Positions 1 to 13,811 are shown, counted from the stretch's first letter. The stretch: 64,000 bases of DNA from Candidatus Dojkabacteria bacterium (GCA_050950165.1 JBMNHC010000001.1:124673-188672), one strand, 5' to 3'. Made by a program: numbers and translations. The notes: generated from the sequence alone by a model not told the origin.

Positions 1-1790
1 GTAAGTTAGTATTTGATAGAAATGGGAATCCTTCTTCTACTAGATTTGCTATTCAAGATAGCATTAGTGGTAAGTATATAGACTACAGTACGAAAACATT
101 GGTTGACAATGTTGTGTGGGGGACATACAACTCATGGGGAGCAACAAATGGGTTACTAATATCTACTTTGGATCCAGGAGTACAGTATACATTTAGGATA
201 AAGGCTATAAACGGTGCAAATGTAGAAACGAACTTCGTAGAAGGAAATACAGGAGCTACATACTCAATAATATTAAATAAAGCAGAGGGCATTGAAACAG
301 TTTTAGTAGATGATAAGGATGTAGATGTTAGCAATACAAGTGGAGCACAAACAGGAGAGCAAAAGATCAGAGTATTACAAGAAAATTACATAGTAGCAGA
401 CGTTCCAATATCTTTTAGTCAAAACAGAGATTGGAGTAATGCTGTTATAGAGAGTTCCATCTTGGAAGGTAAGTCTGTAGTAAAGTTAGATGATTCCCAC
501 GGTCTTTCAGGAACATTTACAATGTATGTTATAAAGAAAGAAAAGGATAACAGTTTTAGAATATGTCCTCATGCAAAAACATTAGCAGAGGTAAACAATA
601 CATGTCCAGAAGGAGTACTTTATACTGGTACTTTCCCCCAAAAGCTTAAAGTATTAAATAATGAGGTGACTGTATCTCAAGCATCACTTTCAGGAACTAC
701 ATATTGGATAGCAGATGGAATTAGTGGAACTGGTGGACAGGGAGAGTTTATTGACAAGACTACTACATCAACCACTAGTAGTAATCTCGTAACACAAGTT
801 ACTACATCAGTACAACAATTCTTCTCAAACACTCAAGTTCTATTAGATAAAACTGTATTGGGGAATATATCGGAAAAAGAACTAACTACAGTATCTGCAA
901 CTACTGCAGCAGTTACTGTTTCCGTTGGAGTTGTATCTGCACTAAGTGGTATACAACAAATCGGATATGGAATTTCTCAAATCTTTATTAATTTGTTTAG
1001 CTCTTTAGGCTTCAGAAGAAAGAGACATAACGCGGGATATGTTTATGATTCTGTCACAAGATCTCCAATCCAACAAGCTATAATTAGAATATATGATTCC
1101 AATCATAAGTTAATAGACACATCCGTAACAGATGGATTTGGATATTGGAGAAGTTCTGCTCCTACTGGAGAGTACACTCTTGATATTAAAAAGAGAGAGT
1201 ATATATTCCCTTCCTCTCTGATACCAGGTAAACAAGACTATCCTCTTACAAATATATACCATGGTGGCAAAATACATATGAAAGAAGGAGAGACAAATAT
1301 TGTGATTCCACTAGATCCTAACAAAGAAGTAATAGGGAAAAAGGTCTTAACTTTCTCAAGAGGGGTCTTCTCTGTTACCTTACCAATACTTAATATTGCA
1401 CTCTTTACAGCAGGTATTACAATAGCTATCTATGTATATCAAAAGAATACAAGTGTTGTTAATCTCATTATTTTACTTCTTTACATCCCAACAATATTTA
1501 CTCTAGTTCAAAGTATTTTAAACCTAAGAAGTAAAAAGGGGACTGTAAAATATTCTGATGGCACTCCTGCAACAAATATCACCTTACTTCTTAAGGAAAA
1601 GGATTTTGATAAAGTAATTTCTAAGAGGGTAACAGATGAGAAAGGTAAGTACTCTTTTGATATTCTAGAGGAAGGAAAGTACGCAATTGAAAGTGCAGAT
1701 AGTAAGATACAAATTATTGAAGGAGAAACAGAAATTATTGCTAAAAAGAGGAAAATCGTCTATAATAGGCTTATAGTAAAAAAGGTGTAA
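1..1790 (+). CDS. 5'-truncated surface protein. It has an FN3-like beta-rich N-terminal region, a TM segment, a carboxypeptidase-regulatory-like (transthyretin-like) domain, TM helices and a second CarbopepD_reg-like domain. It is a paralog of 8184..10268.
   Basis: The frame stays open back to base 1, and an FN3-like motif (YTFRIKAINGANVETNF) is present. The C-terminal half carries GYVYDSVTRSPIQQAIIRIYD...VTDGFGYW...GEYTL and GTVKYSDGTPATNITLLL...RVTDEKGKYSF motifs with hydrophobic helices between them. It aligns clearly with the C-terminus of the 8184..10268 product. Confidence 0.6.
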   Translation, partial: KLVFDRNGNPSSTRFAIQDSISGKYIDYSTKTLVDNVVWGTYNSWGATNGLLISTLDPGVQYTFRIKAINGANVETNFVEGNTGATYSIILNKAEGIETVLVDDKDVDVSNTSGAQTGEQKIRVLQENYIVADVPISFSQNRDWSNAVIESSILEGKSVVKLDDSHGLSGTFTMYVIKKEKDNSFRICPHAKTLAEVNNTCPEGVLYTGTFPQKLKVLNNEVTVSQASLSGTTYWIADGISGTGGQGEFIDKTTTSTTSSNLVTQVTTSVQQFFSNTQVLLDKTVLGNISEKELTTVSATTAAVTVSVGVVSALSGIQQIGYGISQIFINLFSSLGFRRKRHNAGYVYDSVTRSPIQQAIIRIYDSNHKLIDTSVTDGFGYWRSSAPTGEYTLDIKKREYIFPSSLIPGKQDYPLTNIYHGGKIHMKEGETNIVIPLDPNKEVIGKKVLTFSRGVFSVTLPILNIALFTAGITIAIYVYQKNTSVVNLIILLLYIPTIFTLVQSILNLRSKKGTVKYSDGTPATNITLLLKEKDFDKVISKRVTDEKGKYSFDILEEGKYAIESADSKIQIIEGETEIIAKKRKIVYNRLIVKKV

Positions 1791-1829
1791 GCCCCATACA
1801 CTAGCACTTAATTGTAAAGTACAATAAAG

Positions 1830-3785
1830 ATGAAGGCTTCCAAGCTATTTGGGGTAGCTACAGCGTTTACTCTGTTAGGTTCCACTATATCTGGATGTGT
1901 AGAACCTAAATCTACTGAAAAAGAATCATCAGCAGAGAGTTCTTCTACAAAAGAATCTCCCATTGTAGAAACCTCTCCTATTCCTAATAATATAGGTGAA
2001 GACTTATTACCAACTATAGAGCCAGTAGATTTCTTCAACGACACGGAATTAAAATGTGAGATTCCTAAGACTGATCTTGAGCAAAAGGAATTTAACTATG
2101 AAATATTAAATATTGGAGAGTGGGCAAACTTTGAATTAGAAAATGTTGAGAAAAAAGAACCTGGTTACGGAGTAGAAATCTCAGAACAAACATCTCTCTT
2201 TATGATTCCATATAAAAGGGAAGACTATTTCTTAAATCAAAATGGAAAACTCAAAGAAATTTTTGCTCAAGAGGGAACCCCTTTTGAAATAGCAGAGATA
2301 AGGACACTCGCAGGACAAAATGGGGAGAAAGTAAATATTGGAATAATTGCAAATACATATGGTGCGGAAGTCGTTGCTGCAGTAGTTCTTGGAGCAGAAG
2401 ATAAGAATGGTACTCAGAAAAGTTTCTCTGTAGAAAGAGAGCAAAAAGACGCAAAAATTGTCACATACATTGCTACTGAAGATTTTATCTACCCTAATAA
2501 AGTAGAAAATATTCTTACTGCATTAAAAAATATCTCCATCTATCAAGATCAAAATGGTAAATTAAAAGCAGGAGAAGAGTATTCATATATAAACCTAACT
2601 GGTATTAGAGACTCTCGAACATACCAATACAAAACAGGGTTAACAAGCTTAGGTGCAGAAGTAAGAAGTGGAGGCGTATGTGCTATGTCTACAGGGATAT
2701 CATCTTTACTCTACACACAAGAAGCTGAGTACAAAATACTCGAGAGATGGGCAGAACCTAATAGATATGCACAGGGACCTTTCAGTCCGTCAGAGCAGAT
2801 TGTAGATTCTAGTGTAGATTATGACGGGAAAACCGTATACGACTTAAGATGGATACAAGGAGAAGACAAATATCTAAATGTAAATATCGCTATGTCTCCA
2901 ACAGATATACCATTTAGTCAAACATCTACTAATGGAATCGGGGGAATTTCAGATATATTTATGATTGTTTCTTTATCTTTTGAAGATAATGTTAGAGATA
3001 ATCAAACAAAATATATTGAGGATAACCTAAAAACATACCAAAACTACAGAGAATCTCAGCATTATATAAAAGTAAATAAGAATCAGATGGAAGTTAATGT
3101 TCTTAATCATGAACTATCAGAAGACTTAATTCATACTATCAACAACTTGTACAACTTTAAAGATCTTTCTCTGTTTAAAGAGAAAATTAATGAAAGCAAA
3201 GAACTACAAAGTATTCTTAAATTACAAGAAGAAGTTAACAACTACACTTCTAACTCTGGATTCCGATTAATGAACTATTTACAAATTGGAGAATGGTACA
3301 AAAATTTCCCTGAAGAGAAAGAAATTAGTAGAATATTAGAGTCATCTATTGTTGTAGGTTTAAAGTCACAACCTCTACAATGTGTTGAGTTTGTATCTAT
3401 GTTAGCAAAGCTATTTCCTAATCTCTCTATACCACACGCAGGAGCAGCTTCTGCAACAACAGCAAAGGAATTGATTCCCATAATTTTAAAGGAAGAGCGA
3501 TACACAACTGTAGCACAAACAGAGTATGGAGCTACTGCATTTGCCGGTAAATTCTCAGTTGATCAATATCAACCTGGAGATCTCTTTGTAAGAGAAGAGA
3601 GGCCTTGCGGCCATGTAGGAGTAATACTAGATAAAATCATAACAGAGAATGGCGAAGCTGTTCTTTTAGTTGCTGACTCAAACAGAGATAGTGATGGGAA
3701 AATACAAATCTTTATCGTTGATAAAAGGAATATAGAGAAAATTTTTGGAGCTGACAGAAGATATCTTATCAGAAAGAATCAGTAA
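1830..3785 (+). CDS. Putative lipoprotein, 651 aa. The C-terminal end carries a weak NlpC/P60- or CHAP-like His motif (GDLFVREERPCGHVGVIL).
   Basis: The N-terminus has a signal peptide with a lipobox (LLGSTISGC). The C-terminal motif resembles the GDLVFF...HVGIY motif of papain-like peptidoglycan hydrolases, but no clear catalytic Cys partner is seen. Confidence 0.4.
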   Translation: MKASKLFGVATAFTLLGSTISGCVEPKSTEKESSAESSSTKESPIVETSPIPNNIGEDLLPTIEPVDFFNDTELKCEIPKTDLEQKEFNYEILNIGEWANFELENVEKKEPGYGVEISEQTSLFMIPYKREDYFLNQNGKLKEIFAQEGTPFEIAEIRTLAGQNGEKVNIGIIANTYGAEVVAAVVLGAEDKNGTQKSFSVEREQKDAKIVTYIATEDFIYPNKVENILTALKNISIYQDQNGKLKAGEEYSYINLTGIRDSRTYQYKTGLTSLGAEVRSGGVCAMSTGISSLLYTQEAEYKILERWAEPNRYAQGPFSPSEQIVDSSVDYDGKTVYDLRWIQGEDKYLNVNIAMSPTDIPFSQTSTNGIGGISDIFMIVSLSFEDNVRDNQTKYIEDNLKTYQNYRESQHYIKVNKNQMEVNVLNHELSEDLIHTINNLYNFKDLSLFKEKINESKELQSILKLQEEVNNYTSNSGFRLMNYLQIGEWYKNFPEEKEISRILESSIVVGLKSQPLQCVEFVSMLAKLFPNLSIPHAGAASATTAKELIPIILKEERYTTVAQTEYGATAFAGKFSVDQYQPGDLFVREERPCGHVGVILDKIITENGEAVLLVADSNRDSDGKIQIFIVDKRNIEKIFGADRRYLIRKNQ

Positions 3786-4788
3786 TATATTCCATTCCCA
3801 TTGTTTTTCTTACCTCTTTTAATGTGTCTTGTGCATTTTTCTTAGCAATTTTACTATCCTCCTCTATTTTTTTAAGAATCTCTTCCTCATCTAATGATTT
3901 TTTCTTACTCTGAAATTCTTCCAAATATTTTTTAAGTAGAGCTCCTATAAAAGATTTTAGCTCTCCCATTACATTCTCACCAGCATAATGTCTTTGCATA
4001 ATAGCGGAGATATTACTACGCTCTTCCTCTTTTGAAAGAAATTCTCCAATTAATACTAAGGTTTCTAATGTTTCTGATCTCTCACCAGCAAATGCCGTTT
4101 GTGCCTTTTTGATTTTCGAAAGAGATATCTCGATAGGGTCATCTAGTAAAATAGCACCATTTGGATCCGTCTTACTCATCTTGCCACTTCCATTTAAAGA
4201 TTTTACTCTGATAGGCTCTCCAAGTGATAAAGTTTTAGGTATAGGAAATACATCTCCATATCTTTTGTTAAACTTCTGTGCCAAGAATCTTGTCATCTCC
4301 ATATGAGCTAACTGGTCTTCTCCAACAGGTACATACTCTGTTCTTTGCAAGAGTATATCTGCTGCCATCATAATAGGATACATAGCAAGTAAGACATTAG
4401 CACTAGTCTCACTCTGTCCATGCTTAATCTTCTCTTTTAGAGTAGGAACCCTCAAAAGTTCAGCTACAGAAACAAGTCTACATAGATATATTGTCAATTC
4501 TGCTACTTCTTCTACTAACATAGATTGTATAAATATTTTGTTTTTCTTAGGATCTAGTCCTAGAGATATGTAATCTTTTACAACATCGATAACTGCCTTT
4601 TGACTATCTTTAGCCTCAGTATCAGTTAAGGCATGCAAATCAGCAACAAAAACCATACTACTTTTAATTTTTCCACTTTCTTGAAGCTTTACTATGGGAT
4701 TTACACCTCCAATTGCATTTGCAATAGTTAGACCTCCAGTAGGTCTAATACCTGTAAAAGCTTCAACTTTGTAGTCTGAATTTCCCAT
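3769..4788 (-). CDS. trpS: Tryptophan--tRNA ligase.
   Basis: Class I aaRS motifs are present: GIRPTG..LTIANA, VPVGEDQLAHMEMTRFLAQKFNKRYG and KMSKTDPN. The length (339 aa) is typical of TrpRS. Confidence 0.9.
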   Translation of the reverse strand: MGNSDYKVEAFTGIRPTGGLTIANAIGGVNPIVKLQESGKIKSSMVFVADLHALTDTEAKDSQKAVIDVVKDYISLGLDPKKNKIFIQSMLVEEVAELTIYLCRLVSVAELLRVPTLKEKIKHGQSETSANVLLAMYPIMMAADILLQRTEYVPVGEDQLAHMEMTRFLAQKFNKRYGDVFPIPKTLSLGEPIRVKSLNGSGKMSKTDPNGAILLDDPIEISLSKIKKAQTAFAGERSETLETLVLIGEFLSKEEERSNISAIMQRHYAGENVMGELKSFIGALLKKYLEEFQSKKKSLDEEEILKKIEEDSKIAKKNAQDTLKEVRKTMGMEYITDSF

Positions 4789-4850
4789 ATTAATAATCTT
4801 AAACTAACTCCCCATTATATCATTAATTTAAATTGATATAATATAGATGT

Positions 4851-5495
4851 ATGAAATTTGAAGATTTTAAAAGTTTACAAGAAATTCATGAATATTTTGC
4901 TGTTCATAATAGTTGTAAGCTAAAGAAAAGTGCTACCCAACCTGTATATGAGATAAACCCTCCTAAAAAAGGGATTGTCTTCATTGGAGAAGCTCCTGGA
5001 CAAAATGAAGACAAGCAAGGAAAACCTTTTGTTGGTGCAGCAGGAAAACTTCTTAATGAATTACTCGAAGGTTCGGGACTTAAACGAGATGATGTCTATG
5101 TTACGAATACAGTAAAATACAGGCCACCAGCTAACAGAGAGCCTCTACCAGAAGAGAAAGAGGCATGTAGAGTATGGGTTAACTATGAACTGCTTTTCAT
5201 TAAACCAAAAGTTATTATCCCTCTTGGTAGGCATGCACTTGAGAGTTTCATTCCTGGTCTAAAAATCTCCTCTGCTCATGGACAGGTATATGAACATAAA
5301 AGTGGAATTCCCATTTTTGCCATGTATCATCCAGCTGTAGCACTTTACAATCCTACTCTGAAAGCTACCTTGATTGAAGATTTCAAAAGGTTAAAGAGAT
5401 TCCTTCAAGGAAAGATAAAGGTTGTAAAACAAGAAGATGAGGGAGATTTCTCGAAAGAGAAAGAGTCTCTTGTTGATGCTTTGCTAAAGCTTTAA
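4851..5495 (+). CDS. udg: Uracil-DNA glycosylase, family 4.
   Basis: Motifs GEAPGQNEDKQGKPFVGAAGKLL and the C-terminal HPAVALYNP match the family-4 UDG signature. Confidence 0.8.
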   Translation: MKFEDFKSLQEIHEYFAVHNSCKLKKSATQPVYEINPPKKGIVFIGEAPGQNEDKQGKPFVGAAGKLLNELLEGSGLKRDDVYVTNTVKYRPPANREPLPEEKEACRVWVNYELLFIKPKVIIPLGRHALESFIPGLKISSAHGQVYEHKSGIPIFAMYHPAVALYNPTLKATLIEDFKRLKRFLQGKIKVVKQEDEGDFSKEKESLVDALLKL

Positions 5496-6088
5496 TTACT
5501 CCAGCCTACATCATAAAAAATCTTTTCTGCTGCGGTTTCATACTCCATAATCTCTGTTGCGTTAAACCAAAGTCCTATTTCTCTCTCAGCATTTTCTACA
5601 CTATCCGATGCGTGAAGCATAGATCTCGTAACCCTCTTTTGCTCATCTGCCAACGCAAAAGAATCTAGCGAGAAATCGGCTCTAATTGTTCCAACATCAC
5701 CATCTGCAGGACTTGTACTACCAAGCATTTTACGAACACCACTAATAACTCCAAAGCCTTGTAGCACAACAGCAATTACAGGTCCACATGTAAGATAGCT
5801 AATATTAGATTCTCTTACCCATTTACCTCTTGCTAAACTATCCCAATTAGTTACATCCTCTCCTCTTGCGATTGCACCTTTTTTTGCTTTCTCTCCTACC
5901 TCTATCAAATACTCTTTTTTATCCTCATAGTGCTTGCCTACTAGTTCTGGGCTAGGTCTTAACATCTTCATTCCTACAATCTTAAAACCTTTTCTCTCAA
6001 ACCTGCTCACTATCTCACCAACAATCTGTCTCTGGACCACATCTGGCTTGAAAATAACTAACGTCTTCTCTTTATTTTTTGCAAACAT
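5492..6088 (-). CDS. ndk: Nucleoside diphosphate kinase with insertions/extension (198 aa).
   Basis: N-terminal TLVIFKPDVVQR..GEIVSRFERKGFKIVGMK and active-site LHASDSVENAEREIGLWF are present. Confidence 0.85.
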   Translation of the reverse strand: MFAKNKEKTLVIFKPDVVQRQIVGEIVSRFERKGFKIVGMKMLRPSPELVGKHYEDKKEYLIEVGEKAKKGAIARGEDVTNWDSLARGKWVRESNISYLTCGPVIAVVLQGFGVISGVRKMLGSTSPADGDVGTIRADFSLDSFALADEQKRVTRSMLHASDSVENAEREIGLWFNATEIMEYETAAEKIFYDVGWSN

Positions 6089-6162
6089 ATGACTCCTACT
6101 TAATTTATTTACCCATATCTTACAACCTCTCCATTCTAAATGAAACCACTCTCGTTAATAAG

Positions 6163-6443
6163 GTGTGTCCCAGGTATGTCCCCCTGTTTTGCTTGAATAA
6201 GACCATCCTACCACGTTCGTGCGTTGTTTTCTGTTCGGTCTATCCTCAAAAAAACGGTCGGAATCGGGAATAAACTTTGTTGTCCTGCGATTTCGTGGGG
6301 ACAGACCTAGGACAGACCTGCGGTATGGGAATTGGATAAACTTTCGGGAGGGGACAGAGTTGGGACAGACCTGCGATGCGAGGAATCGGGGAAGCGATCG
6401 AAGAGGGACGGACCTGGGACAGACCTGGGGTAGCTGGTATAAT
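6163..6443. promoter_or_regulatory. GC-rich divergent promoter region containing eight GGGACAGACCT-like 11-bp direct-repeat half-sites. Three tandem ~54-bp units sit at 6298-6320, 6351-6373 and 6405-6427. One inverted copy sits at 6163-6185. The array ends in an extended -10 box TGGTATAAT (6435-6443), 5 nt before the elp3 ATG.
   Basis: The repeats were read directly: GGGACAGACCTAGGACAGACCTG, GGGACAGAGTTGGGACAGACCTG and GGGACGGACCTGGGACAGACCTG, with reverse-complement GGGGGACATACCTGGGACACAC upstream of ndk. Local GC is ~50% against ~32% background. Confidence 0.55.
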
Positions 6444-6448
6444 ACGGG

Positions 6449-8047
6449 ATGGATGATTTTAAAAAGATTTTTGGGGAGATAGGGAGGTTGAGGTGTTGGC
6501 GGGAGGAGAGTTTGCAACGGATTTTGAAGCGGTTTCCGAAGGAAGGTAGGGGTTTGTACAGGCATGATGAGTTGGTAGAGGCATATAGGAGGTTGGTTAA
6601 GCAAAATGTGTTGGTGAGAGATGAGGTGGTAGAGAAGCAGATTAGGATGAAGCCGACAAGGACGCTTTCGGGTGTTGCTACGGTAGCGGTGTTGATGAAG
6701 CCGTTTGGGTGTCCTGGGCAGTGCATATTCTGTCCAAATGAGCCGAATATGCCCAAATCATATATTGCTAGCGAGCCAGGAGCTCAAAGAGCTTCAAAAC
6801 ATGGTTTTGATCCTTTTGCTCAGGTATACAACCGTATTAAAGCACTACAAAATATTGGGCATAATACGGATAAGGTGGAGTTAATAATTTTGGGTGGTAC
6901 ATGCTCTGTATATCCAGAACGATATATTGTCTGGTTTGTTAAAAGATGTTTTGATGCGATGAACAGTTTTGGTACATCCCGCTATAACACCGAAGACGAA
7001 GGAATTGAGGCAATAACATGGGAAAAACTTCTTGAAGTCCAAAAAATAAACGAAACAGAAGTTTGTAGAAATGTAGGGGTAGTCTTAGAAACAAGGCCTG
7101 ATTACATAACGGAGGAAGAAGTCAGAAGACTACGAAGACTAGGAGCAACAAAAGTACAGATAGGGATACAAAGCCTCAATAACAAAATACTAAGAGAAAA
7201 TAGGAGGGGGCACACTACTAAAGAAACGAAAGAGGCATTTAAACTGCTTAGATTGGCAGGTTTCAAGATACACGCTCACTGGATGCCTAATCTCTTCGGT
7301 TCTACTGTTAAAAAAGATATAAGGGATTTCAAACGGCTATGGAAAAAAGAGTACCTTCCTGATGAACTAAAAATCTACCCTACTTCGATAATAAAAAATA
7401 CATTACTAGAACAATATTACCAAGATGGTAAATACAAACCATATACAAAAGAAGAGCTACTCTCTCTTTTTGTAAACATACTACCTAAAACTCCAAGATT
7501 TGTTAGGTTAACCAGAATCATTAGAGATATTCCTTCTAATGAGATAGTGGATGGAAATAAACTTACTAACTTCAGAGAGATAGCCGAAAAAGAAATCAAA
7601 AAACTTAATAAAAAGATTCAGGATATTAGAAGCAGAGAGATAAGGGGAGAGAAAATTACATGGAATAATATAGAATTGGAAACTATCAAATACAAAACGA
7701 CAGTATCAACAGAGTACTTCATTTCATACAAAACAAAAGATACAGATAAGATATGTGCTTTCCTAAGACTCTCCATACCAAAAGTTAAACCTTTTATAAA
7801 AGAGATATCGGACTCTACCATGATTAGAGAGGTACATGTATATGGGCCTCTTGTTAATATAGGGGAAGATGGTGGTGGGCAATCACAACATTCAGGGCTA
7901 GGTAAAAGAATGATAGAGATAGCTCAGCAGATATCTTTAGATAGAGGTTTTCAAAAGATGTCAGTAATATCTGCAGTAGGTACTAAGGAGTATTACAGAA
8001 AGAGAGGGTTTAAGGATAATGGTCTTTACATGACCAAAGAAGTCTAG
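6449..8047 (+). CDS. elp3: Elp3-like radical SAM plus GNAT acetyltransferase (tRNA uridine(34) carboxymethyl/acetyltransferase homolog).
   Basis: The radical SAM cluster motif is VAVLMKPFGCPGQCIFCPN. The Elp3-type spacer reads KVELIILGGTCSVYPERY. The C-terminal GNAT reads HSGLGKRMIEIAQQISLDRGFQKMSVISAVGTKEYYRKRGF. Confidence 0.85.
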   Translation: MDDFKKIFGEIGRLRCWREESLQRILKRFPKEGRGLYRHDELVEAYRRLVKQNVLVRDEVVEKQIRMKPTRTLSGVATVAVLMKPFGCPGQCIFCPNEPNMPKSYIASEPGAQRASKHGFDPFAQVYNRIKALQNIGHNTDKVELIILGGTCSVYPERYIVWFVKRCFDAMNSFGTSRYNTEDEGIEAITWEKLLEVQKINETEVCRNVGVVLETRPDYITEEEVRRLRRLGATKVQIGIQSLNNKILRENRRGHTTKETKEAFKLLRLAGFKIHAHWMPNLFGSTVKKDIRDFKRLWKKEYLPDELKIYPTSIIKNTLLEQYYQDGKYKPYTKEELLSLFVNILPKTPRFVRLTRIIRDIPSNEIVDGNKLTNFREIAEKEIKKLNKKIQDIRSREIRGEKITWNNIELETIKYKTTVSTEYFISYKTKDTDKICAFLRLSIPKVKPFIKEISDSTMIREVHVYGPLVNIGEDGGGQSQHSGLGKRMIEIAQQISLDRGFQKMSVISAVGTKEYYRKRGFKDNGLYMTKEV

Positions 8048-8064
8048 AGAATTATAAGGAAATA

Positions 8065-8137
8065 TGGGTGTACAGGGGCTCGAACCCTGAACCTAACGGT
8101 TAAGAGCCGTTTGCTCTACCAGTTGAGCTACACACCC
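8065..8137 (-). tRNA. tRNA-Lys, anticodon CUU, 73 nt, CCA not encoded.
   Basis: The reverse complement is GGGTGTGTAGCTCAACTGGTAGAGCAAACGGCTCTTAACCGTTAGGTTCAGGGTTCGAGCCCCTGTACACCCA. It folds as a cloverleaf with anticodon loop CTCTTAA and T-loop TTCGAGC. Confidence 0.85.
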
Positions 8138-8183
8138 ATTTCAGTTAAGCATAATATCATATAGAAAGGAGATTTTTCAATAC

Positions 8184-10268
8184 TTACACTTTTAAGACAA
8201 TATCTTTCGTAATCAATATCTCTTTCTTAGCAAATACCTCGTTACCACCTTTAATATCCTCAACTATATAAGTAGGATCTAAAATCTCTACATAGTAACG
8301 ACCCTCACCAACAAAAAATCTGTATCTACCATGTGCATCTGTGACTCTCTTTGCAATAATCTTGTCAAACTCCGCCTCCCTTAAAGCAACAGATATGCCC
8401 TCTAAACGATTACCATCTGTATCTTTAACAATCCCATATATATCTCTACTAAAGAATATATTGCGTAATATTAGGAAGAAGGTTGGAACAAACAGAAGTA
8501 AAACAAGAAGAGATAGTGTGGATGGTTGACTGTAATATGTATAGAAAGCCAAAGTGATACCTACCAAGAACAACAGAACATGTAGCAAATGAACAAGAAA
8601 CTTTGTTCTCGTCCAAAATGCCTCTAACTTTATTCTTAACTCTGATACCTCTAGTGGATCCATAGGGATAGCGAAATTAATCTCAGTATCACTTTTAATA
8701 TCAAAAAAGTCTCCATGATATACATTAGTAATAGGGGGGTCCTCACTACCAAATACTACCTTAGAAGGAAAAACATACCTCGCTGCTCTCGCCTCTATCC
8801 TGTATCTACCATCCGTTAGTTTCGCAGTAAAGTACCCTTTACTATCCGTCACATCAGTCCAAACCATTCTATTCTCTTCCGTAAATATCCTAACTATCGC
8901 TTGAGATATCGGCTCTTTACTAACTGCATCATATACATACCCAACAGGCTTAGCACCCTTCCTAAACCCAAACAGAGAAAGAATATTTAGTAGGAACTGT
9001 AAAAGAAAATATGGCATAGATGCTAAAGTACCAGCTGCAACTACAACAGCAGAAGTAGCCGTCACAACAGACGTAGCAGTTGTAACTCTCTCTAAATCCT
9101 TTGCATCTAACTTCCCAACGGTATCATCTAAAATAACGGTAATATCATCAATAACTTTCTCTACCCTATCAATAATTGAAGGCACAGGCGGTACTGGAGG
9201 AGTTGGCTTATCAGGAGGCCTTACTTCCTCTACAGGAATAACTAAACTAATATCACAAAACCTAGTTAGATTACCTGCAGAATCAGTAGCCTCTACACAA
9301 AATTTGTACCTCTCTTTCAAGTAAGTATCAGATACCCTCTCCAAATCCCCTAACCTAATCTTTACCGTCATTAACTCTCCCTCCAAGTTATAATTGGTTG
9401 TACAAGTAACTAAACTCTGTTCTGAATTAAGACAGTAAAACTTCGCTTCATTAATCTGCAAGTTATCCTTTACCCTAATTAAAAATGTTAATTCATAATT
9501 ACTCTCCCAAGAAGTAGTAGTATTCTCACCAATATCTCCCATATCTAATACCTCTACCACAGGAGATTGAGCATCCTGTACACTGTAAACTACATTCGAC
9601 CAAGCACTAACCCCACCATATGCATTGTGAGCCCTAACTCTATAAAAATACATCTTCTCATTTTCCAAATTTGTAAAATTAAAAGATGTAGCAGATATCT
9701 GCGTTGCCTGTGCCTTCAACACACTAAAATCTGAATACTCACTAACCTGTACAGTATACTTGTAGTTAGGACCTAGGCTATCCCACATAACCATATTACT
9801 AAAATCCTTAGTATACTGAGGCTCTGCAAGCATGTTAGGAACAGGAACAGGAACTACATACAATGTCTTACAACTCTGAATAAAAATATCATATCCAAAA
9901 GTAGTATCCTTAGCACAAACAGTATATGTCCCTGGTACAGAAGCAGATACACTACCAGATGTTCTACCAGTAGCATCTGTTAATGACAAAGGCTGAACTA
10001 TATTCAAACCACTACCATATATCACTATCTGACGACCAGCAATTCCCACACCACCTGAAGAGAGAACCCTAACCTCAACAATAGCGGGCTGATATATCTC
10101 AACAGTATTAGGAGTAACTGTAACAGTGGAATACAAATCTACATTAATATTTGCAGAAACCACAACCGAGTTATTAGACGGATCTAAAGGCTGTGCAAAA
10201 GAAACAGATACTAAACCAGTAGTCGTTAGAAAAAGAAACAATATTATTAAGGCAGTTTTAATTTTCAT
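8184..10268 (-). CDS. Surface protein (694 aa) with signal peptide, FN3/Ig-like beta-rich ectodomain, a Pro-rich linker, a TM segment, a CarbopepD_reg-like domain, TM helices and a second CarbopepD_reg-like domain. Paralog of 1..1790.
   Basis: The N-terminal signal is MKIKTALIILFLFLTTTGLVSVSFA, an FN3-like motif (YFYRVRAHNAYGGVSAWS) follows, and a PPDKPTPPVPPVPS linker precedes the TM region. The C-terminal ~260 aa align with the 1..1790 product (GYVYDAVSKEPISQAIVRIF..VTDSKGYF; GIVKDTDGNRLEGISVAL..RVTDAHGRYRF). An RBS (GAGGGGA) lies upstream. Confidence 0.6.
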   Translation of the reverse strand: MKIKTALIILFLFLTTTGLVSVSFAQPLDPSNNSVVVSANINVDLYSTVTVTPNTVEIYQPAIVEVRVLSSGGVGIAGRQIVIYGSGLNIVQPLSLTDATGRTSGSVSASVPGTYTVCAKDTTFGYDIFIQSCKTLYVVPVPVPNMLAEPQYTKDFSNMVMWDSLGPNYKYTVQVSEYSDFSVLKAQATQISATSFNFTNLENEKMYFYRVRAHNAYGGVSAWSNVVYSVQDAQSPVVEVLDMGDIGENTTTSWESNYELTFLIRVKDNLQINEAKFYCLNSEQSLVTCTTNYNLEGELMTVKIRLGDLERVSDTYLKERYKFCVEATDSAGNLTRFCDISLVIPVEEVRPPDKPTPPVPPVPSIIDRVEKVIDDITVILDDTVGKLDAKDLERVTTATSVVTATSAVVVAAGTLASMPYFLLQFLLNILSLFGFRKGAKPVGYVYDAVSKEPISQAIVRIFTEENRMVWTDVTDSKGYFTAKLTDGRYRIEARAARYVFPSKVVFGSEDPPITNVYHGDFFDIKSDTEINFAIPMDPLEVSELRIKLEAFWTRTKFLVHLLHVLLFLVGITLAFYTYYSQPSTLSLLVLLLFVPTFFLILRNIFFSRDIYGIVKDTDGNRLEGISVALREAEFDKIIAKRVTDAHGRYRFFVGEGRYYVEILDPTYIVEDIKGGNEVFAKKEILITKDIVLKV

Positions 10269-10271
10269 CCT

Positions 10272-10928
10272 TTATATCCCCTCAATTACTTTTTTAACAT
10301 AATTATCCAAAACCTTAGTAAAAAATTCTTCACCATACGGATTACTCCCTAACTCTAAGCATTTTACACCTCTACTGTAGCAGTTTTTACACAGAAGGGC
10401 AAAGCGAGAAACATCAATATATCTCAACCCCTCTTTACTACCACACACTCTACACTCAGAGAAATCCTCCAAAAAACCCATCTCTTTCAAAAAAATAACC
10501 CTAAACCTGTTAGTAGACTCTAAATCAAAATCTCTCTCCAATACACTCCTTAACATATCAAAAACCTTCTCATTAGCATCATACTCTGCAAGCATACGAT
10601 TAAGCATATTCAACACCCTCTTCATATTCTCAACCCTTCCTTTCAACACATCCGTATTAGGAGCATATACCAATGAAGATTCAGTAAGAAGAGGCAAACC
10701 CTTACCCTCATAGAAAGATATCTCACTAATACACAAAGTCTGCATATTACCCCTATTCTTACTATTAATCTTTCTAATACTCTTTGCAAACAGAGCAAAC
10801 TTTCCCAAATTCCTACCAAAAACAGTCAACACCTTATCTGCCTCCGAGTAATTAACCGACTTTATTACAACAACTAAATCCTTCATTAAAGTATAATAAT
10901 AGATATTAAAAACCTCTCTTCTCAACAC
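10272..10928 (-). CDS. recO: DNA repair protein RecO (compact form).
   Basis: An N-terminal OB-fold-like pattern is present (VVVIKSVNYSEADKVLTVFGRNLGKFALFAKSIRK). The C-terminal zinc finger reads CRVCGS...CKNCYS. Confidence 0.6.
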   Translation of the reverse strand: MLRREVFNIYYYTLMKDLVVVIKSVNYSEADKVLTVFGRNLGKFALFAKSIRKINSKNRGNMQTLCISEISFYEGKGLPLLTESSLVYAPNTDVLKGRVENMKRVLNMLNRMLAEYDANEKVFDMLRSVLERDFDLESTNRFRVIFLKEMGFLEDFSECRVCGSKEGLRYIDVSRFALLCKNCYSRGVKCLELGSNPYGEEFFTKVLDNYVKKVIEGI

Positions 10929-11535
10929 CCTTTCTTGTAATAACTACCCAAGGAGTCTTAAGAAGAATATATACCTCATTAAGTATACTAGGATTCTTTG
11001 CAAAATGACTCTCCATTACTAACCTCTTCCTAAAAGGAATACTGTTTCTACCAGACACCTGCCATACCCCCGTTATACCAGGCTTAACCTTAAAAATATC
11101 CTCCATATATCTGCTATCCGATGGATATAACTTAAAGTGTCGCTCAAGCTCACTACTGTAATATGGCCTAGGACCTACCAAACTCATCTGCCCCAACACC
11201 ACATTAATTAACTGAGGAAGCTCATCCAAATCTGTATTTCTCAATACCCTGCCAATCCTTGTCACTCTAAAATCATTCTCTAATTTATGACTCCTAACAA
11301 ACTCCCCATCAGTAACTAACATATCATGAGCATTAGGAACCATAGTTCTAAACTTGTACATAAAAAACTCCTTACCACCCAACCCACACCTAACAGGAGT
11401 ACCTACAAACACCTCTCCACCATCAGAAAACTTAATTAGAAGAGCAATAGCTAACATTAAAGGAGAAAACAAAATCCAAAGGACAGTAGCAATAACAAAA
11501 TCCATTATCCTTTTAACAACTCTGTACAACATCAT
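10906..11535 (-). CDS. Polyprenyl-phosphate hexose-1-phosphate transferase (bacterial sugar transferase, WbaP/PglC-like).
   Basis: It has a single N-terminal TM segment followed by KFRTMVPNAHD, RVTRIGRVLRNTDLDELPQLINVVLGQMSLVGPRP and SGRN motifs. Confidence 0.8.
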   Translation of the reverse strand: MMLYRVVKRIMDFVIATVLWILFSPLMLAIALLIKFSDGGEVFVGTPVRCGLGGKEFFMYKFRTMVPNAHDMLVTDGEFVRSHKLENDFRVTRIGRVLRNTDLDELPQLINVVLGQMSLVGPRPYYSSELERHFKLYPSDSRYMEDIFKVKPGITGVWQVSGRNSIPFRKRLVMESHFAKNPSILNEVYILLKTPWVVITRKGVEKRGF

Positions 11536-12694
11536 CTACATACCTTTGTAGTTTATAGATAAAAATCTCAACTGCAAAATTGTTAGACTGCTTCCTACAA
11601 TTATCTGCCTTGTACTTCCTACTATCAAAATTCTTAAGAACCTTTGCTAAAGACTGATACGTATACTTATCAAAAAATTCACCACTCTTAGGATTAATAT
11701 CAGATATACTCTCCACTACACCACCACCTCGATAAGCAATAACTGGAGTACCAGCAGCATTAGCCTCTACAGGAACAATACCGAAATCCTCCCCCTTAAC
11801 AGGAAATATTAACGCCTTTGCCTTAGAAAGCAGATCCAATTTCTCCTCCTCAGAAACAAAACCTAGAAACTTAACATACCCCTTCGCATTTAACTCCTTA
11901 ACTAACTCTTTCATCCTTTCCAAATCATCTCCAATACCAGCAACCTTCAAAGATACCCTAGCACTATGTGCTGCCCTAATGGCAAGCTCTACACCCTTGT
12001 AGGTCTCTACCCTACCCAAATAGAGAAACCAATTCTCTTTTTTGTTAATCTTAGTTACCTCCTGTATAGCCTTAACCTCTACTGGAGGATAGATTACATC
12101 ACTCTCTCTCTTGTAATATTTCTTAATCCTCTTCTGTACAACCTTAGAGATAGCAATCATTTTGTCTATCCTCTGTGCTGCTCTCCTATCCAACCACCTC
12201 CATATATCCTCCACAAAAGTATTCATAAAAAGAGAGTAAATAGAATACAACACCCTGTTTATACCACCCAACCTTTTACCATCCTTTAATGATCTACCTT
12301 CCTTCTCCCAAAGAAATTTAGGAGGAGACATACAGATATTTACATGAGGAATCTTACCATTAGCATATTTAGCAAAAGCTATAGAAAGAGAAAGAATTAC
12401 ATCAAAGTCATTAAATCTAAACAACCTATACGCAAGAGGCTGAAATAGATTTAGAAAATATCTAAACTTAAACTTACCAGGAATATATTGCATAAAAGAA
12501 GTCCTTACCTCAATATCAGGAAAATACCTCTTAACAAAATCCCTATCACAAAAAGCAGTAAAAAGAACACTACCAGGAAACGCCTTAAGCATATCACTCA
12601 AGTGCTTCTCAGCACCACCATATTTGTATAAAGGATCAGCAACTACTGCCACCCTGTATTTACGACTCTCGTTTCTCTCTTTCATAAACCTCAT
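11513..12694 (-). CDS. Glycosyltransferase, GT4 family.
   Basis: The C-terminal GT-B motif is EDFGIVPVEANAAGTPVIAYRGGG. Confidence 0.8.
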   Translation of the reverse strand: MRFMKERNESRKYRVAVVADPLYKYGGAEKHLSDMLKAFPGSVLFTAFCDRDFVKRYFPDIEVRTSFMQYIPGKFKFRYFLNLFQPLAYRLFRFNDFDVILSLSIAFAKYANGKIPHVNICMSPPKFLWEKEGRSLKDGKRLGGINRVLYSIYSLFMNTFVEDIWRWLDRRAAQRIDKMIAISKVVQKRIKKYYKRESDVIYPPVEVKAIQEVTKINKKENWFLYLGRVETYKGVELAIRAAHSARVSLKVAGIGDDLERMKELVKELNAKGYVKFLGFVSEEEKLDLLSKAKALIFPVKGEDFGIVPVEANAAGTPVIAYRGGGVVESISDINPKSGEFFDKYTYQSLAKVLKNFDSRKYKADNCRKQSNNFAVEIFIYKLQRYVDDVVQSC

Positions 12695-13811
12695 TAATAA
12701 ATTTCTCTAGATTAATTAAAAACCTCTCCTCACTAAATACCCTTGCCCCCTTAACAATCTCTCTAGGATTATACATCCTCTTACTAAATTTCTTAAGTAA
12801 AGAAACCAACTCTTTTTCACTACTAAAAAACTCCCCAGAAACACCACCCTTAACAGTCTCTAAAACACCACCCTCACCATATGCAAAAACAGGAGCTCCC
12901 TGTGCCATAGCCTCAACAGGAACTAATCCAAAATCCTCTACACCACAAAAAAGCAACAGATCTGCCATACTGTAAAACACCCTTACCTCAGCATCATCCT
13001 CAAGAAAACCTAAAAACCTAATCAACGGATTACCATTAGCAACCCCCTCCAAATATTTCAAATCAGGACCCTCTCCAATAACTAATAATTGACGATTAGT
13101 AGCAATAGCGGCACGTATAGCCCAATCTACCCTCTTGTAATCATACAAACGAGACACAACAAGAACAAAATCACCCTCCACACCATACCTCTCTCTAACC
13201 TCTCTCTTTCTACTCTCAGACACACTCTCAAAACTCTCTTCTAGAACACCAGGGTATAAAACAGTAGCATCTACCCCATATCTTTTCTTAATCTTTTCAG
13301 CAATATATTTAGAATTAGCTGTCCAGTAATCTACACGCTTAGATATACTTAAATCCCACATACGCATATATGTATTCAAAACAGTAGAAAGAGGCTTGTA
13401 TATCCTCTTAAACCTAGACGCCCTAATATTCATCTCATTGTCCCAAAGACTCCTAGGAGGAGTCATTACCATAGCAATATGAGGCTGATTAATACCAGTA
13501 ATCACACCCTTTGCTGGACCAGCAGATATACTAATTACTAAATCATACCCTCTCAAATCAAAACTCTCATACGCAAAAGGTGTTAAAACTTTAAAGTGTC
13601 TATAAAAACTTCTTACCTTAGGAATCCTCTGTACAAAACTAGTAAAAACCCTCTGCTTTAGCATAGGATATTTTTTAGAATCAAAAAACATCGTAAAAAT
13701 ATCAGCCTTAGGAAAAAGTTTTAACATTGAAAACATCTCTCTATCAGCACCACCAAACGCAACCATCTGATCTGCAACAATAGCAACCCTCTTGAAATAT
13801 TCCCTCTGCAT
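12660..13811 (-). CDS. Glycosyltransferase, GT4 family.
   Basis: The motif is EDFGLVPVEAMAQGAPVFAYGEGG. Its start overlaps the stop of the upstream gene by 1 nt (TAATG). Confidence 0.8.
   Translation of the reverse strand: MQREYFKRVAIVADQMVAFGGADREMFSMLKLFPKADIFTMFFDSKKYPMLKQRVFTSFVQRIPKVRSFYRHFKVLTPFAYESFDLRGYDLVISISAGPAKGVITGINQPHIAMVMTPPRSLWDNEMNIRASRFKRIYKPLSTVLNTYMRMWDLSISKRVDYWTANSKYIAEKIKKRYGVDATVLYPGVLEESFESVSESRKREVRERYGVEGDFVLVVSRLYDYKRVDWAIRAAIATNRQLLVIGEGPDLKYLEGVANGNPLIRFLGFLEDDAEVRVFYSMADLLLFCGVEDFGLVPVEAMAQGAPVFAYGEGGVLETVKGGVSGEFFSSEKELVSLLKKFSKRMYNPREIVKGARVFSEERFLINLEKFINEVYEREKRES

Follow-up and report, generated by a model that had tools for sequence, protein, structure and literature searches.

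A candidate membrane-anchoring module shared by two paralogous surface proteins of a Candidatus Dojkabacteria bacterium

Several ways are known in which large beta-sandwich proteins are retained at a membrane or cell wall. Adhesins and pilins of the MSCRAMM/Cna type, for example SdrD, Cna and SpaA, combine CnaB/SdrD_B prealbumin-like stalks with an LPXTG sortase signal. NOMO of the BOS complex and SlaB, the S-layer anchor of Sulfolobus, have beta-sandwich stalks followed by a single C-terminal transmembrane helix, with all of their domains on one side of the membrane. Bacteria of the candidate phyla radiation (CPR, or Patescibacteria) are thought to live attached to host cells, and little is known about how they retain large surface proteins. 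In this study we analyze two paralogous proteins, here called A and B, that are encoded in a stretch of 64,000 nucleotides from a Candidatus Dojkabacteria bacterium (GCA_050950165.1 JBMNHC010000001.1:124673-188672; hereafter the window). Both end in a common module in which pairs of hydrophobic helices alternate with beta-sandwich domains. We consider it probable that A and B are paralogues within a large unnamed envelope protein family of the Dojkabacteria (WS6, Patescibacteria/CPR), and that the module they share serves variable surface proteins as a polytopic membrane anchor, which is the best reading of its position and composition.

The window is a low-GC segment (GC ~27-40%). The reading frame of protein A is open at the window edge, running from nucleotide 3 on the + strand to a stop codon at 1788-1790, and its N-terminus lies past the left edge. 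On contig L001, which is identical to the window across the protein A region, the called product has 1438 aa; the 1201 aa of it that were read consist of a long FN3 series (fn3, 102.3 bits in 4 stretches) followed by the part found in the window. Protein B (8184-10268, - strand) is complete at 694 aa and is identical to the NCBI entry [quoted passage not shown]. The genes for A and B converge, tail to tail, on the 6.4 kb that separates them, and a preliminary description of this DNA had placed both frames correctly, A extending to 1790 (+) and B from 8184 to 10268 (-). It had also described an intervening housekeeping block, of which trpS (-), a family-4 udg (+), ndk (-), elp3 (+) and tRNA-Lys CTT (-) are confirmed; a 651-aa open reading frame (ORF) at 1830-3785 (+) had been overlooked. 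At higher window positions than B come recO and then a GT4-GT4-Bac_transf cluster (window 8184-13811, B included).

A comparison of A with B by BLASTP gives a single significant alignment, C-terminal in both proteins, that pairs A 270-593 with B 369-693 at 36% identity over 329 aa (E 2e-47). The earlier proposal of a shared C-terminal module is thus upheld by a highly significant similarity, but the module measures ~330 aa and not the ~260 aa first given. A tblastn search of the 64-kb window yielded no third module copy beyond A and B. The Pfam model CarboxypepD_reg (PF13620; gathering score 32.3 bits) matches two stretches in each protein, with 45.7 bits in A and 54.8 bits in B. The corresponding domains, D1 and D2, have the seven-stranded transthyretin-like fold, and D1 of A carries a family-specific conserved extension with the motifs FPS, DYP, NIYHG and IPLDP. 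Each D domain is the last part of a repeating unit that runs from a pair of hydrophobic helices through a Lys/Arg-rich tether of 8-9 residues into a transthyretin-like (CarboxypepD_reg) beta-sandwich. In B the four hydrophobic segments, H1 to H4, occupy residues 392-416, 418-435, about 557-580 and 584-606, and A has equivalents. H3 of B is the hydrophobic remainder of a helix spanning residues 543-580, the first third of which is basic and amphipathic.

We modelled the module alone with AlphaFold2 (predicted local distance difference test score, pLDDT, 68.5) and full-length B together with 59 orthologues (pLDDT 79.4). In both runs the four hydrophobic segments come out helical, at 15-38 residues each, and beta-sandwiches are returned for D1 and D2. 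The alternation of two CarboxypepD_reg domains with hydrophobic helices seen in the preliminary description is real by Pfam as well as by AlphaFold2, and the segments are modelled as helices and not as buried strands. H3 and H4 are 22-23 aa long, with Kyte-Doolittle means of ~2.3-2.5 over 19 residues and median Hessa values below 0, and are by these measures clearly transmembrane-like; the hydrophobicity of H1 (+2.6) and H2 (+5.1) is marginal by a crude sum of Hessa apparent free energies. Those marginal sums, together with low pLDDT, are what could be cited for the idea that the segments are buried strands or soluble cores and that the shared region is merely two adjacent CarboxypepD_reg repeats. 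However, all four segments are helical in both AlphaFold2 runs, H3 and H4 have the hydropathy just given, the charge pattern flanking the segments is conserved (see below), and pure CarboxypepD_reg repeat arrays recovered by the same search are without hydrophobic segments. We therefore regard a soluble module as very improbable.

As read from its sequence, the module consists of one unit that has been duplicated internally, in tandem. When profiles of H1-H2-D1 and H3-H4-D2 were compared with hhalign, they aligned at 98.7% probability (E 2.7e-16) over a stretch that matches H2, tether and D1 to H4, tether and D2. Three family members (P0147, P0148 and P0155) retain a D1-type extension in D2. 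Spacing within the module is nearly constant in 133 sequences, the set to which all length and charge values below refer: H1-H2 has a median of 44 aa, the tethers 8-12 aa and H3-H4 49-52 aa, and the stretch spanning the H3-H4 loop (B 577-588) has 12-13 aa. Lengths this short and this close to invariant imply that the beta-sandwiches would be held close to the ends of H2 and H4. Insertions in the loops were sought as a clue to sidedness, and none were found across this set.

To assess the extent of the family, a profile of the module was run with HMMER against 1.84 billion cluster representatives in an exhaustive search, which returned 7370 representatives at E<=1e-3 and 1077 at E<=1e-30, totals that include proteins made only of CarboxypepD_reg repeat arrays. 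Among the 159 best proteins, 131 contain the complete, uninterrupted module, beyond which the protein continues for a median of 4 residues, and the remaining 28 are either repeat arrays without hydrophobic segments or fragments with a partial module. Module-bearing proteins range from 237 to 4258 aa, and CarboxypepD_reg matches 44 of 48 diverse family members. Proteins of the B type form a tight orthologue group of about 85 clusters of about 690 aa. Organism labels are Dojkabacteria or generic metagenome-assembled genomes of Patescibacteria, Saccharibacteria and Microgenomates that show the same gene order. All existing names are automatic: "hypothetical protein", "carboxypeptidase regulatory-like domain-containing protein", "tandem-95 repeat protein" or "cysteine-rich repeat protein". 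There is no model in Pfam or NCBIfam that spans the hairpin regions or the whole unit, a full-text literature search found no description of the architecture, and a sequence profile searched against the PDB gave generic domain-level matches only. Two short proteins that appeared to be stand-alone modules (P0146 and P0100) were rejected as truncated gene calls, since their frame runs on upstream through a scaffold gap or Pro-rich linker, which marks them as fragments. On a JGI contig (L003, 8858-10927) the B orthologue has been called as two separate ORFs, one of 374 and one of 308 aa.

The regions that precede the module are variable. In B they comprise a Big_1-like domain (40-141), an FN3 domain (148-235) and an Ig-like domain (236-345), modelled with pLDDT mostly above 90; Big_1 scores 38.4 bits (cut-off 34.9) and fn3 24.8 bits (cut-off 25). 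Foldseek matches this part of B to the Ig/FN3 arrays of the adhesins InvD, InvE, SiiE, FdeC and SdrD. With FN3 repeats in A, these assignments bear out the divergent FN3/Ig-like ectodomains of the preliminary description. Elsewhere in the family the region in front of the module includes fn3, Big_1, Glug, Flg_new_2, cadherin-like domains, NHL propellers, beta-helix and Cys-rich repeats. A signal-like N-terminus is present in 78 of the 92 members that have a Met start and carry 150 aa or more ahead of the module. The exported region of B contains three Cys pairs, and five of its six cysteines are conserved in at least 90% of the 59 orthologues. Family-wide, exported regions contain 1.12% Cys with a bias toward even over odd counts (69:33); modules contain 0.18% Cys, usually 0 or 1 residue.

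Some members have an additional N-terminal segment. In three proteins from other Dojkabacteria (P0079, P0084 and P0135, the last being NCBI WKZ31380.1) this segment is response-regulator receiver-like, with a Pfam receiver match above threshold in P0135 and weak in P0079, and an assignment by sequence resemblance alone in P0084. The receiver-like segment is followed by a hydrophobic segment at ~216-250, a giant beta-helix/Big_9/cadherin region and the same C-terminal module. A cytoplasmic receiver domain on a giant surface protein would be unusual.

How would such a module work? In the mechanism we propose, a variable exported adhesin-type stalk would come first, preceded in most members by a signal-like segment, and the C-terminal module would hold the protein in the cytoplasmic membrane. 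The helix pairs would embed in the bilayer, while the short, length-invariant tethers would keep both beta-sandwiches against one membrane face. Anchoring is the most economical role given the constant C-terminal position behind exported and fast-varying regions, the membrane helices, and the lack of a sortase-type signal. A regular-expression search revealed no LPXTG-like motif in A or B, which both end in a folded beta-sandwich. There is also no Pfam match for an N-terminal outer-membrane beta-barrel, B starting with a signal peptide that is followed by beta-sandwiches. Several points weigh against this picture. We infer the anchoring role from position and composition alone, and AlphaFold2 confidence is low for H1 and H2 of B (pLDDT 42-57). 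The signal peptide of B, the form of the H1-H2 region and the usual location of transthyretin-like domains add to these and are taken up with the topology below.

The preliminary description had suggested a family of envelope or S-layer-like anchoring proteins. A large family with a common anchoring module is indeed what we find; its identification with S-layers is not supported, as the Pfam and NCBIfam matches include neither SLH nor any other known S-layer domain. A narrower version of this idea is that B is a conserved structural envelope component, such as an S-layer-like lattice anchor, with A-type and other paralogues being variable adhesins. The tightness of the B-type orthologue group is what makes a structural role for B conceivable. 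However, in addition to the missing domains, no result indicates lattice formation or high expression, the match to SlaB involves a single generic beta-sandwich, and conserved gene order beside recO does not imply function. We consider this assignment unlikely.

Charge distribution provides the principal information on which side of the membrane D1 and D2 reside. The mean number of Lys+Arg residues is 3.56 after H2, 2.59 before H3 and 2.85 after H4, so that these three D1/D2 flanks sum to 9.0, as compared with 0.75 in the H1-H2 turn (0.10) and H3-H4 loop (0.65) together. The 12 residues before H1 are acidic (2.5 Asp+Glu versus 1.0 Lys+Arg), and the Pro-rich linker and acidic helix that precede the membrane have a net charge of -4 to -7 across the family. 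The positive-inside rule is well established, and when it is applied to this pattern D1 and D2 would be cytoplasmic and the H3-H4 loop would be outside. The module, unlike the exported regions, is also nearly free of Cys, which is weak evidence that the two parts may reside in different compartments. Taken together the sequence features lean slightly toward a cytoplasmic location of D1 and D2. In such a topology there would be one membrane crossing in the H1/H2 region, and H3-H4 would form an inserted hairpin with a short outside loop.

The topology signals are nevertheless in conflict, as charges place D1 and D2 in the cytoplasm and the parity of four helices after a signal peptide places them outside. 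Given the signal peptide in B, a cytoplasmic location requires an odd number of crossings within the 44 aa of H1-H2, a region that has the look of a counterpart to the H3-H4 hairpin; its Pro turn is conserved, and H2 aligns to H4. Transthyretin-like/CnaB domains of bacterial surface proteins are moreover normally extracytoplasmic, and the domains structurally closest to D1 and D2 are extracytoplasmic ones, from pilins, adhesins, carboxypeptidase D, NOMO and SlaB. These same observations argue for a topology in which each helix pair, H1-H2 as well as H3-H4, crosses the membrane as a full hairpin and exposes only a tiny turn to the cytoplasm, leaving stalk, D1 and D2 outside: the first helix pair has a Pro-containing turn like that of the second, the alignment of H2 plus D1 with H4 plus D2 suggests a duplicated hairpin-plus-domain unit, the closest relatives of the domains are extracytoplasmic, and helix parity fits a cleaved signal peptide directly. 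The beta-sandwiches would then form a membrane-proximal pedestal that perhaps binds cell wall or anionic lipids via its basic tethers. Against such an arrangement, it would put 9.0 Lys/Arg outside and 0.75 inside, opposite to the positive-inside rule, and basic residues directly after a helix that starts translocation hinder export. H1 and H2 are in addition only marginally hydrophobic, and the modules have almost no Cys, whereas paired cysteines are used in the exported parts of these proteins. We hold an all-outside topology to be a credible but somewhat less probable alternative to cytoplasmic D1 and D2.

The choice affects how the module should be viewed. If the beta-sandwiches are outside, the module would be an odd but ordinary pedestal-type anchor. 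If they are cytoplasmic, a typically extracellular fold would have been put to unusual use, and the module might act as a device for transmembrane coupling. A further, speculative step is that cytoplasmic D1 and D2 connect a giant variable adhesin with the interior of an ultra-small episymbiotic cell, either mechanically or through signalling, and that the receiver (REC) subfamily hints at inside-out regulation of adhesion under the control of phosphorylation. We regard this combination as improbable; if true, it would be a bacterial analogue of integrin-type coupling that involves a fold not known in such a role.

The inverted arrangement of the A and B genes had also led to the suggestion that the ~6 kb between them might invert. 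In such a scheme the inverted paralogous 3' regions would recombine and flip the 6.4-kb housekeeping block, an idea for which geometry, namely convergent paralogues 6.4 kb apart, is the only support. At the DNA level the module-coding regions of A and B share a longest exact word of 12 nt and a best in-register match of 38 nt at 76%, and no inverted repeat between the two genes is better than one of 30 nt with 73% complementarity. Matches this short are far below what homologous recombination needs, and no recombinase was found among the neighboring genes tested.

Comparison with other genomes leads to the same view. We examined 55 related loci from other species-level genomes, which a search with two peptide patterns recovered mainly as B-type orthologues. 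Across ~50 species-level Dojkabacteria genomes (L003-L057) there is a conserved order of GT4-GT4-Bac_transf-recO-B-...-elp3-ndk-udg-trpS, with recO present in 50 of the 55 loci, elp3 in 36, ndk in 23, udg in 22 and trpS in 3. Wherever one of these genes is retained, its orientation relative to B is that of the window, including all copies of elp3, ndk, udg and trpS within the block that would invert. Coverage of the related loci ends 6 kb downstream of the module, and a second copy at a distance of 6.4 kb would thus be missed; the orientation evidence is independent of this coverage. The two A-type orthologues that were recovered (L053 and L058) are not beside this block. In closer relatives (L004-L007) additional genes amounting to 2.7-3.5 kb separate B from elp3; in the window tRNA-Lys alone occupies this position. 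By gene order, B is apparently part of an old and stable syntenic block, and in this genome A happens to be located at the far end of that block. That A and B converge is apparently fortuitous, a matter of gene order and not of a recombination device; with no DNA homology between the copies and constant orientation in related loci, we regard inversion of the block as very improbable.

Table 1. Features of proteins A and B and of the DNA between them, in window coordinates (residue numbers are those of the protein).
Feature	Position	Strand	Basis
A exported region, last part: FN3 repeat and Cys-containing domain	3..788	+	translation
A pre-membrane helix, H1 (nt 882-956), H2 (nt 957-1013) and basic tether RRKRH	789..1034	+	hydropathy, alignment to B
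A D1: CarboxypepD_reg beta-sandwich	1035..1322	+	Pfam, family alignments
A basic amphipathic helix into H3, short loop, H4, second basic tether	1323..1535	+	hydropathy, charge profile
A D2: second CarboxypepD_reg beta-sandwich, then stop	1536..1790	+	Pfam best stretch residues 512-562
Intervening genes, outside the module: 651-aa ORF (+), trpS, udg, ndk, elp3, tRNA-Lys	1830..8138	.	
B D2: second CarboxypepD_reg beta-sandwich (612-694), then stop	8184..8435	-	Pfam, hhalign
B long helix (543-580), 3-residue loop, H4 (584-606), basic tether	8436..8642	-	AlphaFold2, pLDDT ~72-83
B D1: CarboxypepD_reg beta-sandwich (443-538)	8655..8942	-	
B H1 (392-416), conserved Pro turn, H2 (418-435), basic tether RKGAKPV	8943..9095	-	
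B Pro-rich linker and acidic amphipathic helix (346-391)	9096..9233	-	sequence; low pLDDT
B exported region, three beta-sandwich domains	9234..10151	-	Pfam, AlphaFold2, Foldseek
B signal peptide MKIKTALIILFLFLTTTGLVSVSFA	10194..10268	-	sequence, hydropathy, modelled helix 2-18

Several other features of the window deserve mention. The 651-aa ORF begins 40 nt past the end of A and carries a signal of the lipoprotein type (…LLGSTISGC); its only database matches are weak ones to VanW, CHAP and DUF4846 (E 0.0008-0.025), and tblastn found no match to it in the related loci, those with A-type genes (L053 and L058) included. Within the divergent intergenic region between ndk and elp3 (6089-6448), the 11-nt motif GGGACAGACCT occurs seven times with at most 1 mismatch between 6161 and 6426, with copies at 6161 and 6172 on the - strand and at 6298, 6309, 6362, 6405 and 6416 on the + strand. 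These are mostly tandem dimers ~54 nt apart. Elsewhere in the window there is one match (41604), and the whole-window chance expectation is 0.56. This cluster looks like a putative regulator-binding array; it has no Rfam match, and an Rfam search of positions 1-11000 matched the tRNA alone. An extended -10-like element, TGGTATAAT (6435-6443), ends 6 nt before the elp3 ATG at 6449, a proximity which suggests that the elp3 mRNA may be leaderless or that the true start is the next ATG at 6453. The elp3 gene (6449-8047, +) encodes a full-length Elp3 homologue with radical SAM and GNAT domains (TIGR01211, 500 bits). The public gene call on an identical contig has 432 aa, and the 532-aa ORF matches the Elp3 model over 56-531. 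To our knowledge Elp3 is uncommon in bacteria, and here it is conserved near B in the 36 related loci that retain it.

Further along the window, ~24000-47000 is occupied by a long minus-strand cluster in which GC falls to 27-31%. It includes two Polysacc_synt flippase-like genes, a UDP-glucose/GDP-mannose dehydrogenase and several ORFs of 467-684 aa without a Pfam match, and from this gene content it looks like a variable surface-glycan locus. Genes for SecA, a histidine kinase and an FtsX/MacB-type permease also lie within the window.

The module would be new as an anchor, and the adhesin-type surface proteins that carry it are otherwise familiar. It is a candidate lineage-specific anchor for CPR surface proteins, present in several hundred protein clusters at the least, some of whose proteins exceed 4000 aa. 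It could become a domain family in its own right and help to catalogue the surface proteins encoded by Dojkabacteria genomes. Relative to MSCRAMM/Cna-type proteins, A and B have no LPXTG-like motif, and their hydrophobic and basic elements are interleaved twice with folded domains instead of being placed at the extreme C-terminus; retention would involve a polytopic membrane anchor and not covalent attachment to the cell wall. Intimins and invasins resemble B in that Big_1 is above threshold and Foldseek matches the stalks of InvD, InvE and FdeC, but B has no N-terminal beta-barrel and its predicted anchor is C-terminal and helical. In contrast to NOMO and SlaB, two helix pairs alternate here with two domains, and sequence homology to those proteins is limited to the generic fold. 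Finally, the H3-H4 pair, with its hydrophobic helices, loop of 3-5 residues and basic outer flanks, is reminiscent of the hairpin insertion known for M13 procoat, but in this family every hairpin is joined both to a folded beta-sandwich and to an exported region of giant size.

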